Origin: Promethearchaeota archaeon
GTDB taxonomy: Archaea; Asgardarchaeota; Thorarchaeia; Thorarchaeales; Thorarchaeaceae
Assembly (NCBI GenBank): GCA_048939765.1
Contig: JBHLPF010000030.1
Span: 3,402-47,445, forward strand
Direction: 5' to 3'
DNA: 44,044 bases
Positions 11,045-16,251 of this stretch are shown in pieces (within the stretch, counting starts at the first letter, position 1; each line of letters begins with the position of its first letter). The notes beneath the pieces were generated by a model. The model was not told the DNA's origin and did not search any database. It saw only the letters and a list, made by a program, of their open reading frames with translations. The position numbers were made by a program, and so were the translations under genes.

Positions 11045-13732
11045 TTGGATAGTCACGCATGGAGACGCGAAATCGACAAGGTCGCTGAAATTAAAGGAAT
11101 GTTGATTCAGCTCAACAAATCTCTAGAAGACCAGACTGACAGAACCGTGCGCCATTTGTATGATACACTGGCGAAGTTCGCAAAGTTTGAGAGTGATGCA
11201 GGTTCAGCAGGTTTCATGAAAAAGAGAAAGCTGGTCGCTCAGATGGAAAAGACTGCTGGCGCTCTTGAAGAGGACTTTATGCGGGCAGTAAGGGATTTCT
11301 CAGACCTGCTGCGAAAGGAGCAACGAGAAACAGCTGCAGTCCTTCCAAAGCTTCAAGCAGAGAAACCCAATGAAGCAAAAGCAATCAGCGCGTTGACATT
11401 TCCATCTACAGGAACTGGGGATGCGAAAGACCTAGAAACCCTCTTGACATTTGCGAAGAATTTCTCAAAAATCACTCTCGGCGTTCATCAAGATCTAGCC
11501 CGAGAAGTCAAAGAGTTTCTGGACGAAAGCAAGCGGATCGTTGAGACCTATGAGAGGCATATTACCATAGACAGGGGTGAAGTCGCCTCGACTCTGTCAT
11601 ACGAAGAGGTAGCCCAACTGCCAGTCGGGGACATTATCGGACTATCTGAGAAGCTAAAGGCTGAACGCACATATCTTGACGGGCGGAAAGACGAAGTAAG
11701 CAAGATGATTGGAACTGCTTTGATGACTGAAGTAGAGTCATTGCAGGCGTCAGTTGAAACAGCATCAAGATTGGGCCTAGAGCTTCCAATGGATTTTGGA
11801 CAGCAACTCAGAATCATTGCAAGAGACTCCTCAAAGACAACGAACCTAACTTCACTCATTGCTCTGGAGAATCAGCTTCATTCCGCGAAATTGAAGATGT
11901 CGAATCTACTCCGCGACAGGATTATCAATATGAAACATGAAGTGACCTCTAAGATTGTTGAGGGAGGCATTCCTGTCACAGCTGCTATTATTCCAGAATC
12001 ACCAATTGTTGGTGTGGAGGCTGAAGATGTTGCTACTCAGCTATCCGGATATCAGAAGATGGTCGAATGGGAGTCTCAGGTCAATATCTCTCTGAAGGAC
12101 CATGTGGAAGAAGTAATCGAGGAAATTGAGAAAGCCTTGGATGCTCCAGATGATGCGGGAATCAAGGATGTCGCCAAGGTCAAAAAGTGGATTACGGACA
12201 CTAGGACGTCTTTGAAGAAGCCAACAGTTGATGGCATGGTTGCAACTTATGTGAAAGCAAATGGTATGCGTGAGGAATACCGAAAGAACATTACTGATAC
12301 CATTCGTGGATATATCACCAGATTCAATGAACTCGCTACCTCAGCAGACCGCGTGCTTGATTACGCTCAACTCAGTAAGAAAGCACCAAAGGTCGAAGAA
12401 CTTGATGGAGGTATCGTCTATCTTCTGCAGTCACTTGCTAGCCTACGTGTCGCTGTCGAAGACGGAGTTGCTACTTTCCGTGATGCATGCAAGCAAGAGA
12501 TTGAAGTGATTGTTGAGGACCTTCAGACCATCAAGCCTGCATACGCGGAAATCTTCATGCCAATCATTACCGAGCTAGACGAAGGCTCCATGCGGATTGA
12601 GAAACTCAACGATTTCGGCGAAATCAGGTCCGAGATGAGAACAATCAAGGACACAATTCTTGTTAAGGCGCAAGAGTCATTGGAGAATCTCCGCTACAGG
12701 CTTGGAGTCAAGATTCGACTCGCAGCAGCCAAGCTGATGGGAGCTGGTGTTGAGATTCCAAAGGAAGCTCAAGAGGCAATCAGCGAATTGAACAGCGTCG
12801 GTGTGGCTGCTGACACGGTCTTTAGTCTACCTGCAATCGCGAGGAAAATGATTGAACTCTATGAGCACAAGATAAGCGCAGAAGTCATAGAATCACTGAA
12901 GGAAGAGGTCGCCAAACTTCAGAAATCATTTGATCAAGCAGACGCGATTGGAGTCCCAGTCAAGGATGAGCTCAAACTGCTAAAGAAATTGCGAGAGACT
13001 CCTCCGGAAGAACTGGAATCTGCAGCTGATTCGTTTGATCAACTCATGGGCCTGACAACCTCGCCAGACGTACACAAGAAGATTAGGACACGAGCAGAAG
13101 AGGCCTACCGCCAGATTCAAGGCGCTGTTTCCATCTTTGAAGAACAAGGTATGTCTGACTTCGTTGGGCGCCTAAAAGGACTATTGGAGCAAGTTCCAGA
13201 CCAACTCAGCAAGGATTCAAAGCACATCTTCGAAGTGCTTGATGTCTGTCTCACATTGGCAAACATCCAAGATGAAATGTTGCAGGTCATAAAGGGTATT
13301 GCAACCAAGGATGGAGAAGTTCATCAAGAAGAAATCAAGAAGCAATCGGAGTATTACTCGACAATTGAAGCAGTCTACGAAAAGCATCCCAAGGACTTCA
13401 GCAAGCTCATCTTCCCGCTCGAGAAGCTCCGGAAGCTTGAAACTGACCTAGCTGAGGCCACGGTTCTTGAGGACGCCATTAAGGACTTCAACGAGCTCAA
13501 GGGACTTCGATTGGAATGGGTCGAGAAAGCAGGAAAGATGGATGACTGGCATAAATCCATGAAGGTATTCATAACCGGTTTCAGTCCATCAGCAACGCCT
13601 GACCAACGTGAGACTTTCGTCACTGACGCAGTCAAGAAGGTCAAGGAAACATACAGTAGAGAGGACATCAGTTCCTATCTGACATGGGCGATTCGTGAAA
13701 TCACAGACAAAATGGTGGAGAAAAGAGGTTAG
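11045..13732 (+). CDS. Large all-alpha coiled-coil / helical-repeat protein of unknown function
   Basis: 895-aa ORF, E/K/L/A-rich heptad character throughout, no TM and no Walker A. Recurring helix-G-hydrophobic turns (RLGLELP, EGGIPV, GAGVEIP, AIGVPV). Good SD. Confidence 0.85.
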   Translation: MDSHAWRREIDKVAEIKGMLIQLNKSLEDQTDRTVRHLYDTLAKFAKFESDAGSAGFMKKRKLVAQMEKTAGALEEDFMRAVRDFSDLLRKEQRETAAVLPKLQAEKPNEAKAISALTFPSTGTGDAKDLETLLTFAKNFSKITLGVHQDLAREVKEFLDESKRIVETYERHITIDRGEVASTLSYEEVAQLPVGDIIGLSEKLKAERTYLDGRKDEVSKMIGTALMTEVESLQASVETASRLGLELPMDFGQQLRIIARDSSKTTNLTSLIALENQLHSAKLKMSNLLRDRIINMKHEVTSKIVEGGIPVTAAIIPESPIVGVEAEDVATQLSGYQKMVEWESQVNISLKDHVEEVIEEIEKALDAPDDAGIKDVAKVKKWITDTRTSLKKPTVDGMVATYVKANGMREEYRKNITDTIRGYITRFNELATSADRVLDYAQLSKKAPKVEELDGGIVYLLQSLASLRVAVEDGVATFRDACKQEIEVIVEDLQTIKPAYAEIFMPIITELDEGSMRIEKLNDFGEIRSEMRTIKDTILVKAQESLENLRYRLGVKIRLAAAKLMGAGVEIPKEAQEAISELNSVGVAADTVFSLPAIARKMIELYEHKISAEVIESLKEEVAKLQKSFDQADAIGVPVKDELKLLKKLRETPPEELESAADSFDQLMGLTTSPDVHKKIRTRAEEAYRQIQGAVSIFEEQGMSDFVGRLKGLLEQVPDQLSKDSKHIFEVLDVCLTLANIQDEMLQVIKGIATKDGEVHQEEIKKQSEYYSTIEAVYEKHPKDFSKLIFPLEKLRKLETDLAEATVLEDAIKDFNELKGLRLEWVEKAGKMDDWHKSMKVFITGFSPSATPDQRETFVTDAVKKVKETYSREDISSYLTWAIREITDKMVEKRG

Positions 13733-13751: not shown

Positions 13752-15137
13752 ATGCTACGAGGAACATCGAGTGATGATGATCTGACAAAGGCCGCGGAGG
13801 TCTTTGCAATTGGGATTGGAGAGTGTGGGAGTAATATTGTAGGCTCCTATCTGAAAGCCAGTAAGGACAGGCAACTGCCTTCCAGAGTCAGAGGCTACTT
13901 GCTCATGAACACCGACAGAGCTGACCTCACCAAGGTGCGGCAAAAATACGGCATCCCCAAGGAGCATACAATGCTCTACGGTGCATCAGAGATAGGCGTT
14001 GGTGGAAGATTCATGGACGGATATAATGCTGTCATTGAGTCGAAGGACATCATCTTCGAGCAGCTCAAAGACCTAGGATTCGAAGGAGTCTCGGGCTTCT
14101 GCATTTTCACGAGCCTTGGCGGCGGTACAGGTTGCGGCGGGACACCCGCCATAATCGAACTGCTAAAGCAGAGATTCCAAGAAGAAGAAGGCCGCCGAAT
14201 CTTTGTGTACGTTGTAGGCATCCTACCATTCGAAGGACAGTCGAGTGAGGCGCTGAACTCGATCTGGGCTGTATCCCGTCTTCTTAGAGCACAGCTCCAA
14301 GAACGTGGAGCAGACCTTACTATTCTCCTGAGCAATAGGACTATGCTGAAGCGAATCCTCCAATCAAGAGGAGCTGATAGCGTCGACTATCTTCAACGTG
14401 AGCTAGAGATCGACATTGCCAATATCAACCAGATTGAGAGCATGGTGCCATCCACTCTGGATGAGGGCGGCGAACTAGAGGCTCGAACTGAACAGGCATT
14501 TGTTGAGTTGGTAAACCCGCTCGCACTGGATGTTGTCGAGGCAATGCTCTCGCCAGGTGTGTATGAACCTCACAAGGATGTGTTCCCGACAACAGACCTT
14601 GCGGACTATGCGAGAAAGCTTGACCCTGTCGTTGTCCCAGCGCTTTACACAGACGTTGGATTGATACCGGACGCAGGCAGCATGCCGAAGCAGCTCAAGA
14701 CAATGATGGATTTTGCAGTGAAAGAATGCTCCTATGCTGATGTAGGTGCAGAGCCAAATGCAGAGAGTGTATACTATGTCTTCTCTGGCCCAAGGCACAT
14801 CTCCAAAGCTGAATACGGAATGCACCTGAAGGAAGCACTCAATGGATTCATTGCTCCTGGAGCTGCGATCACTCCATGTTATGTTACATATACCACCAAA
14901 GATCCTTCTACCAACCTCCTTGTCCTTCTGGGTCTACCAAAGATTCCAGAGCTTGTACAAATCATCAACGAGGCAACCCAACTCGTTAATCTTCACAGCG
15001 GTTCTTCACCGCTCAAGCAGGGGTGGTTCATGCGGGCTAAGGGAACAAGTAGAAAAGAGCTTGTTGATGCCATTGCGGACTTCCGTGAGCTGTTCTCATA
15101 CTACATGACACCCGGTGATGCAGCTGAACCGATGTAG
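13752..15137 (+). CDS. Tubulin/FtsZ superfamily GTPase, divergent, with tubulin-like C-terminal helices
   Basis: T1 IGIGECGSNI, T2 NTDRADL, T3 GVGG, T4 signature SLGGGTGCG (GGGTGCG at 14118-14138), T5 LPFEG, T7 TDLAD, and C-terminal WF...G....EL.DA..D...L...Y. Confidence 0.92.
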   Translation: MLRGTSSDDDLTKAAEVFAIGIGECGSNIVGSYLKASKDRQLPSRVRGYLLMNTDRADLTKVRQKYGIPKEHTMLYGASEIGVGGRFMDGYNAVIESKDIIFEQLKDLGFEGVSGFCIFTSLGGGTGCGGTPAIIELLKQRFQEEEGRRIFVYVVGILPFEGQSSEALNSIWAVSRLLRAQLQERGADLTILLSNRTMLKRILQSRGADSVDYLQRELEIDIANINQIESMVPSTLDEGGELEARTEQAFVELVNPLALDVVEAMLSPGVYEPHKDVFPTTDLADYARKLDPVVVPALYTDVGLIPDAGSMPKQLKTMMDFAVKECSYADVGAEPNAESVYYVFSGPRHISKAEYGMHLKEALNGFIAPGAAITPCYVTYTTKDPSTNLLVLLGLPKIPELVQIINEATQLVNLHSGSSPLKQGWFMRAKGTSRKELVDAIADFRELFSYYMTPGDAAEPM

Positions 15138-15156: not shown

Positions 15157-16251
15157 TTGACTGAAGGAACCAACATTGCAGAGGACCTCCTTGACAGAGT
15201 TCTCTTGATAGTGACCTTGAATTCAACTCTCCTTCATTTTCTTCTAAGCACCCAGGTAGATGGTACAGTTGATCCCGATAGAGTGGACTCCTTGATTCAA
15301 GGCCTCCTCAGGACTCGTCGATGGATGGAAGAAGCGACTGAACTGAAGAACATCACTCCATCCACACAGAACATCATTAGTCTAATAGTCAAAAGGCTTT
15401 CCCAGATTGAGAGCCTGTTGCCGAAGCTATCAGCAAGAGCAAAAGAGGCTGAAGCAAAAGGAGCTCCAGCTGCAGAGATCATCTCTTTCTTGGATGATGG
15501 CGCTAAAGCGTCTACGACTACAGCTATCAAGACCTCTGGAACGCCAACGGCTGCCACGAAGAAGACAGCAGCAACACCAGATTCCGGTGTCATTCCTCTT
15601 GTTGGTGAAGAAGAGGAAGTCCCTGTAGAGCCTTACCGAAAAGTCGAGGTTGAAAACGACGAATGGGGCTTGATAGGGCAGATGCAGAGGATGATTACTC
15701 AATATAGCAAGAGATGCCATGTCCTGCTGCCTACATTCTGGATTGATACTCTTCGCGAACTCCACAAGTATAGATCCGACTCGCCATTCTATGGAGATGT
15801 GATTGAACTCCCGGGTCGGGTTATTGTTAGAATCGTAAAGGGACTTCTCACTGAAGCTCCAGGAGCAAGGCTTCTTCAAGATCTATCCAAGAAGCGCCCA
15901 CAGGAAAACTATCTGAATCCCTCAGAGATGGAGCGGATTGAACGTGCTGTGGCTAGGTACTTTGCAGGCGTGGTGGATGTTCTAACTGAAGGCGAATTCA
16001 ATGTGGATGAAAAGATTGGAGAGGCTCACGCAAGCTTCGACAGCTTTGGTTGGGGAGGTCCTGAGCTAGAGAAACGAATCATCAAGAGGATAAATCAACA
16101 GGTCCAAGAAGCAATCCAAAATGCGGAATCGGCCAGTGATCCTCCAAGACAAGTGATTTATTCCGAGATTGCTAAACTATTGACAAAGTTGCAGCATGCA
16201 ATCCTTGCAGAGCCTAGATTGAGAGAGATTCTGGCTCAAATGAAGCCGTGA
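15157..16251 (+). CDS. Hypothetical helical protein, third gene of the tubulin-like operon
   Basis: 364-aa ORF 19 bp after the tubulin-like stop (TTG start). Two helical regions joined by an A/T/K/P low-complexity linker and an acidic EEEE patch. Confidence 0.75.
   Translation: MTEGTNIAEDLLDRVLLIVTLNSTLLHFLLSTQVDGTVDPDRVDSLIQGLLRTRRWMEEATELKNITPSTQNIISLIVKRLSQIESLLPKLSARAKEAEAKGAPAAEIISFLDDGAKASTTTAIKTSGTPTAATKKTAATPDSGVIPLVGEEEEVPVEPYRKVEVENDEWGLIGQMQRMITQYSKRCHVLLPTFWIDTLRELHKYRSDSPFYGDVIELPGRVIVRIVKGLLTEAPGARLLQDLSKKRPQENYLNPSEMERIERAVARYFAGVVDVLTEGEFNVDEKIGEAHASFDSFGWGGPELEKRIIKRINQQVQEAIQNAESASDPPRQVIYSEIAKLLTKLQHAILAEPRLREILAQMKP

Follow-up and report, generated by a model that had tools for sequence, protein, structure and literature searches.

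The 44,044-nucleotide stretch of DNA analysed here (the window) comes from a Promethearchaeota archaeon of the Thorarchaeaceae (contig JBHLPF010000030.1) and encodes, at 13752-15137 on the forward strand, a tubulin/FtsZ-superfamily protein of the Asg.Tub family, which was named by Santana-Molina et al. 2023 (PMC9871819). The question that this locus raises is whether the C-terminus of such an archaeal protein carries the H11-H12 hairpin of tubulins. The outward H11-H12 surface lets motors and microtubule-associated proteins (MAPs) read eukaryotic microtubules, and the end helices of Asg.Tub bear on the origin of tubulin from FtsZ/CetZ-like ancestors. A sequence-only reading of the window had claimed the hairpin from an alignment by eye with alpha-tubulin and had proposed that it serves as a platform for partner proteins. 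From a predicted structure, profile comparisons and conservation across the family, we conclude that the Asg.Tub tail is probably a real, homologous tubulin-type H11'-H12, and that descent, beyond mere similarity, most likely links H12 and the residues leading into it to those of tubulins.

In the frame of the gene, 14913-15137 translates to NLLVLLGLPKIPELVQIINEATQLVNLHSGSSPLKQGWFMRAKGTSRKELVDAIADFRELFSYYMTPGDAAEPM. The two strings on which the sequence-only reading relied, IPELVQIINEATQLV (residues 398-412) and WFMRAKGTSRKELVDAIADFRELFSYY (residues 425-451, at 15024-15104), are exact on retranslation, and the feature that it delimited, 14930-15137, corresponds to the last 69 codons of the open reading frame (ORF) with a start that falls off the codon boundary, a cosmetic flaw. 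An AlphaFold2 model, computed without templates from an alignment of 44 family sequences, has a predicted local distance difference test score (pLDDT) of 83 and a predicted template modelling score (pTM) of 0.84, with residues 400-450 at pLDDT 79-90. After the last strand of the core, the modelled chain continues in three helices, the first of which is the H11-like helix that had been placed ahead of WFMRAKGTSRKELVDAIADFRELFSYY. The C-terminal elements are the following.

14913..14933, forward strand: strand S10, residues 388-394, the last core element (secondary structure of the model; solved FtsZ aligns up to here)
14946..14993, forward strand: H11 helix, residues 399-414 (model pLDDT 85-87; one conserved face)
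14994..15050, forward strand: H11-H12 connector, including a short H11'-like helix at residues 420-430 (the most conserved C-terminal stretch)
15051..15104, forward strand: H12-like helix, residues 434-451 (model, superposition, profile and conservation)
15105..15134, forward strand: short variable tail, residues 452-461 (pLDDT <50; not an E-hook)

Foldseek ranked OdinTubulin, CetZ and eukaryotic tubulins together as matches to the model (E ~1e-18 to 1e-19). Superposition with VIA-align, in which FtsZ, TubZ and PhuZ reached Z-scores of 21-29, separated these proteins by the point at which each ceases to align.

Tubulins proper (Odin 7evb and 7evg, BtubA 2bto, beta 4ffb_B, AtubB2 9f6v_D, alpha 7quc_A, gamma 3cb2): alignment ends at model residues 453-454 and chain residues 420-437; 356-367 residues aligned; Z 31-35
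CetZ1, CetZ2 and Methanosaeta CetZ (4b46, 4b45, 3zid): alignment ends at model residues 413-422; 317-327 residues aligned; Z 34-35
TubZ and PhuZ: alignment ends at model residues 415-421
FtsZ: alignment ends at model residues 395-396; 2vaw spans model residues 10-396

The ~33 additional residues aligned to tubulins are H11'-H12. The superfamily fold is common to all of these proteins, but FtsZ stops at S10 (model residue 396) and TubZ and PhuZ have one C-terminal helix; CetZ, which equals the tubulins in structural Z-score and has H11 in common with Asg.Tub, lacks H11'-H12 in its solved chains, whereas Asg.Tub continues for ~30 further conserved residues that are ordered in the model. Because H11 is also possessed by CetZ, TubZ and PhuZ, it is H11'-H12, not H11, that discriminates tubulins. 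The earlier description of H11-H12 as a tubulin hallmark absent from FtsZ is thus right about FtsZ, which ends before H11, and too broad as far as H11 is concerned. With tubulins proper, the core fold is common and H11-H11'-H12 of the predicted structure superposes to the end of H12; the sequence-only reading had staked its claim beforehand on this superposition, and the AlphaFold2 model bears it out. The endpoint pairs model residue 453 with Odin tubulin residue 420, an offset of 33 that equals the one obtained from sequence (G431 with G398, Y451 with Y418), so that two independent alignments agree.

The sequence register was established with a profile of the family (residues 385-461, 44 sequences) and a profile of eight Asgard tubulin C-termini, taken from the eight genes that a PF03953 search retrieved from Asgard genomes (Odin-type tubulins and an AtubA/B-like pair). 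Comparison of the two by hhalign gave a score of 28.4 (P 3.9e-5), pairing residues 419-453 with tubulin residues 383-420; none of 200 column shuffles reached this score (mean 10.3, standard deviation 2.4, maximum 18.9), and the reversed profile scored 11.5. When each C-terminus was compared with the full-length profile of the other family, its best match was the other's C-terminus, with runners-up at 11.9 and 19.9. Invariant positions coincide (G431 with G398, A440 with A407, Y451 with Y418), as do hydrophobic ones, and the register drawn by eye with alpha-tubulin recurs in pairwise alignments with the Asgard tubulins, whose scores were reached by 3-28 of 2000 shuffles for the Odin-type sequences (102 of 2000 for one of them) and by 85-160 of 2000 for the AtubA/B-like ones. 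The common H12 motif can be written G-x5-hydrophobic-x2-A-x2-[DN]-hydrophobic-x2-hydrophobic-x3-[YF]. It is found in 96 of 114 family members, in six of the eight Asgard tubulins and in the alpha-tubulin fragment; among the 17,454 residues of the window's ORFs it occurs once, in the residues of the Asg.Tub C-terminus itself, and among 65 other superfamily matches it occurs once, in a true tubulin (7e-70 to alpha-tubulin).

Conservation was measured over 115 family sequences, and the burial of single residues was deduced from helical periodicity. H11 presents one conserved face (E400, I404, E407, A408, L411, I412, L414), and the conserved, buried face of H12 (L437, A440, D443, L447, F448, Y451) is hydrophobic with the periodicity of core packing; in both helices, conserved positions are spaced i/i+3/i+4/i+7, as for helices packed on a core. 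The exposed faces are variable, with entropies of 2-3.2 bits, and the tail (452-461) is short, variable and not strongly acidic, and is no E-hook. The connector is the most constrained part (H415, S419, W425, F426, R428, S429, K430, G431), with W425, F426, K430 and G431 invariant among orthologues. Since each of H11 and H12 has one conserved face and a variable exposed one, the hairpin appears to be structurally essential, while its outer surface varies from member to member. The proposed partner platform is only partly supported: the predicted outer hairpin would provide its scaffold, but the exposed faces vary and the tail is not acidic.

The remainder of the protein defines the family to which this C-terminus belongs.

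13752..15137, forward strand: Asg.Tub gene, 461 amino acids plus stop, tubulin/FtsZ-superfamily GTPase (ORF; Pfam; near-identical C-terminus in KXH77455.1)
13797..14351, forward strand: GTPase domain, residues 16-200, with the GGGTGCGG signature (PF00091; sequence matches to other superfamily members are confined to it)

The only Pfam domain matched in the 461-residue protein is Tubulin (PF00091; 1.9e-20, residues 16-200). Both features by which the tubulin/FtsZ superfamily is recognized, a GTPase signature of the GGGTG(S/T)G type and an acidic residue in the T7 loop, are present, and GGGTGCGG and the T7 acidic residues D282 and D285 are invariant in the 44 family sequences; the retention of two acidic residues in T7 had earlier been likened to FtsZ and CetZ. 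Sequence comparison confirms the assignment to Asg.Tub, because the published Asg.Tub C-terminal alignment, of four sequences, includes OLS26264.1 (match P0110) and also KXH77455.1 (a Thorarchaeote protein of 461 residues), which is near-identical to ours over the last 60 residues (PMC9871819). A word-indexed search returned over 100 orthologues, with identities of 49-95%; those with a named source are from Thor-, Hermod-, Hod-/Heimdall- and other Asgard archaea, none from outside Asgard, and a few carry the automatic annotation 'Tubulin-like protein CetZ'. Among 1.84 billion cluster representatives scanned, full-length relatives were confined to two clusters and one 31%-identical outlier, all remaining matches being limited to residues ~16-205. 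NCBIfam holds no model specific to Asg.Tub and returned a single sub-threshold FtsZ match. Santana-Molina et al. 2023 described the family as Asgard-only, with helical or coiled-coil neighbours (PMC9871819). The gene is thus a further member of a named, uncharacterised family, for which we found no bench study in the searchable literature; what is added here is that its last ~35 residues match tubulin H11'-H12 in profile and predicted structure, and a tubulin-type H12 with residual sequence signal was not found described for Asg.Tub in the papers searched.

Against tubulins proper, Asg.Tub differs in several further respects. Outside the C-terminus, where the H12 motif is common to both, sequence similarity is limited to the GTPase domain (E ~1e-4); Asg.Tub is without an acidic tail, it is a single gene in most genomes rather than an A/B pair, and it has other operon partners. 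It also carries an insert of ~40 residues (14364-14486, residues ~205-245) that is family-specific, poorly conserved, modelled at pLDDT 49-68 and variable in length among orthologues; judging by the order of helices in the model, it would follow the GTPase domain and precede the central helix. From CetZ, Asg.Tub differs in taxa and gene neighbourhood, and no sequence match to CetZ extends past residue ~200.

A quick maximum-likelihood (ML) tree was computed from core columns alone, without H11-H12, and the FtsZs of the window's genome served as outgroup. Canonical CetZ formed a separate clade with a Shimodaira-Hasegawa-like approximate likelihood-ratio test (SH-aLRT) value of 96, which included match P0143 (3e-113 to CetZ1), and Asg.Tub fell in a weak assemblage (SH-aLRT 87) with tubulins and a further archaeal superfamily clade (P0134, P0136, P0147, P0155-P0157, P0161, P0163, P0165 and one Methanosarcinales member). 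This last clade, probably 'Halo.Tub'-like, groups with Asg.Tub and tubulins, apart from canonical CetZ, and ends in a helix of the form R.I..NL..Y. We considered this R..NL..Y helix as a candidate H12 and rejected it: it looks alike by eye and its best local match lies at the tubulin H12 positions, but the profile score is not significant (14.2, P 0.22). Three other proteins (P0126, P0137, P0190; ~31% identical) formed a trio (SH-aLRT 97) that the quick tree joins to Asg.Tub as its sister (joint group 93). Their H11 begins with the G(A/L)PKI.E that is common with Asg.Tub, whereas their connector differs, and they may be a more distant Asg.Tub branch.

Several results weigh against a homologous tubulin-type hairpin or against the role proposed for it. 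When the last 77 residues are aligned with the 26-residue alpha-tubulin fragment by the Smith-Waterman algorithm, the by-eye register comes out as the optimal local alignment, with a score of 22, but 266 of 2000 shuffles reach that score, which on its own puts the alignment at the level of chance. In a full-length hhalign comparison with Asgard tubulins, the GTPase region (82-204) alone was aligned, and the C-terminal match emerged only when the C-termini were compared by themselves. The position of W425 is ambiguous, as it pairs with tubulin W407 across a one-residue gap in the pairwise alignment and with an upstream Odin tryptophan across a three-residue gap in the hhalign one. The H12 motif was defined after the alignment had been seen and is therefore supportive only, and column shuffling destroys amphipathic periodicity, so that some of the profile score may reflect no more than a general likeness of helices, an origin that the positional controls argue against. 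No match to Tubulin_C (PF03953), the domain that tubulins proper carry, was obtained in the 461-residue protein by a Pfam scan at E up to 1, and the published hidden Markov model of the Asg.Tub C-terminus matched no other tubulin/FtsZ protein (PMC9871819). By sequence, the GTPase domain is nearest CetZ: the best PDB matches by phmmer are CetZ1 (1.2e-9) and Methanosaeta CetZ, which cover the N-terminal half alone, and BtubB, OdinTubulin, AtubA and alpha-tubulin follow at 1e-4 to 1e-2 over residues ~50-215, tubulins being at ~1e-4. Santana-Molina et al. reported limited CetZ similarity and CetZ-like indels and favoured a CetZ affinity (PMC9871819). Finally, the structure is a prediction, in which AlphaFold may lean on learned tubulin folds, and the variable exposed faces weaken the idea of a conserved partner platform.

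One rival explanation is that a CetZ-type protein independently gained two helices after H11 at the H11'-H12 site, the likeness to tubulin being a product of the constraints on amphipathic helices packed on the same surface. The CetZ-like GTPase domain and indels and the non-significant alpha-tubulin alignment fit such a convergent extension, as does the approximately unbiased (AU) test, in which a forced clade of Asg.Tub and CetZ was not rejected (delta log-likelihood 4.5, p-AU 0.45). Convergence accounts less readily for a profile match that is position-specific and reciprocal, with the same G, A and Y invariant in both families, or for the absence of the H12 motif from all 64 other non-tubulin superfamily matches, canonical CetZ included. 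The Halo.Tub-like C-termini, which serve as a control, do not score significantly, and the quick ML tree, weakly, puts Asg.Tub outside canonical CetZ and with tubulins. We consider convergence improbable. A quite different possibility is that the hairpin is an artefact of modelling and that the W-F...K-G segment with its amphipathic helix is a flexible peptide that binds a partner or a membrane in the manner of the FtsZ C-terminal peptide, which would suit a C-terminus whose structure is only predicted, whose most conserved residues lie in the connector and not in H12, and whose partners are strictly co-encoded. Yet the model reached its confidence over 400-450 template-free, the segment is not preceded by a long disordered linker, H12 conserves a hydrophobic face whose periodicity is that of core packing, and the superpositions on Odin, BtubA, AtubB2, alpha, beta and gamma tubulins all end at the same point; we regard this explanation as very unlikely. 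That the resemblance is a matter of chance, without structural or evolutionary meaning, draws on the 13% of shuffles that reach the alpha-tubulin score and is hardly credible beside the significance of the profile match, the reciprocal positional matches, the superposition and the family-wide conservation. Even jointly, artefact and chance carry very little of our expectation, and homology to tubulin H11'-H12 is the explanation that we retain.

With this homology, the last ~65 residues would comprise H11, an H11'-like helix with the invariant W-F, and H12, forming a hairpin that packs against the outer side of the GTPase and activation domains. Since neither its nucleotide motifs nor the two acidic residues of T7 vary within the family, Asg.Tub is likely to be a GTP (guanosine triphosphate)-dependent filament former, and it would polymerise head-to-tail through a contact between T7 and the nucleotide. 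H11-H11'-H12 would then clamp the two core domains together and, if the filament is oriented as we suppose, form its outward helical surface. The invariant connector (H415, S419, W425, F426, K430, G431) is a putative functionally constrained element that could mediate contact between subunits close to the top of the monomer, or serve as a docking point; in tubulin, H11' lies near the top longitudinal contact. Two adjacent, co-transcribed helical proteins may act on the filament, possibly on the hairpin surface itself, and the fast evolution of these partners leaves room for co-evolving contacts with that surface.

Asg.Tub is a candidate intermediate, since its GTPase domain resembles that of CetZ and its predicted H11'-H12 is of tubulin type and retains a trace in sequence. 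It offers a tractable system for dating the appearance of the outer surface and its first binders, and its fixed three-gene operon supplies two candidate binding partners; this value is tempered by the facts that the family had already been named, that the evidence is predictive and that the core-column tree gives no firm placement. A more far-reaching proposal, which we think unlikely, would make Asg.Tub the surviving sister of all tubulins, H11'-H12 having arisen a single time, in an ancestral Asgard archaeon that predates the tubulin intermediate domain and the A/B heterodimers; the two co-encoded helical proteins would be filament-associated proteins that dock on the outward surface, a prokaryotic forerunner of tubulin plus MAP.

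The genes on either side of Asg.Tub lie on the same strand, each separated from it by 19 nucleotides.

11045..13732, forward strand: upstream partner, an 895-residue all-helical protein (synteny; homologous to the Heimdall neighbour at 6e-21)
15157..16251, forward strand: downstream partner, 364 residues (synteny; homologous to the Heimdall neighbour at 8e-24)

This arrangement was traced through 82 loci of other Asgard genomes, for which a flank of at least 2.5 kilobases upstream or at least 1.2 kilobases downstream was required. An upstream homologue was present in 68/68 loci with enough flank and a downstream one in 78/78, always on the same strand, so that a ~900-residue helical protein on one side and a ~360-residue protein on the other are family-wide neighbours. 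Both diverge fast, with 20-29% identity where Asg.Tub keeps 54-63%. The 895-residue protein has no Pfam match, no sequence relative in the PDB and no clear fold relative, and the Atlas gave just its own cluster. The 364-residue protein, likewise without a Pfam or PDB sequence relative, was modelled at pLDDT 84 as a three-helix N-domain, a disordered acidic linker and a helical C-domain (160-364, ~97). Foldseek and a wide VIA-align search returned no PDB match to the C-domain; since generic three-helix-bundle matches to the N-domain (Z <=11.4) took up the list, the C-domain was effectively not covered by this fold search.

At loci L008-L013, Odin-type tubulin genes are each followed directly, on the same strand, by a gene for a conserved ~445-residue coiled-coil protein (for example L010:2-1339, minus strand, beside the tubulin at L010:1360-2634). 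This neighbour gave no match to the 364-residue partner. Its profile has a 27-column motif, E..A.I.D.Q......E.F.P, in common with residues 484-510 of the large partner (hhalign P 0.005-0.009), although the best of 120 shuffles (32.9) exceeded the re-run real score (31.3); as a common tubulin-binding motif, it is a weak lead drawn from sequence comparison.

Asg.Tub was found in 115/301 sampled Asgard genomes (32/90 of those of high quality), most of which carry a single copy. The genome from which the window derives has two ordinary FtsZ genes elsewhere and, in the PF03953 search, no tubulin with this domain; the eight genes recovered lie in seven other Asgard genomes. The two kinds of protein are complementary in distribution, the three families with Tubulin_C tubulins (seven genomes) being without Asg.Tub and the Asg.Tub families without Tubulin_C, a pattern to be read with the number of families, only three, in mind. 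In genus g44 (family f22; for example genomes G139, G259 and G253), several large genomes carry two Asg.Tub paralogues (E ~1e-234 and ~1e-211), which suggests a duplication within that lineage.

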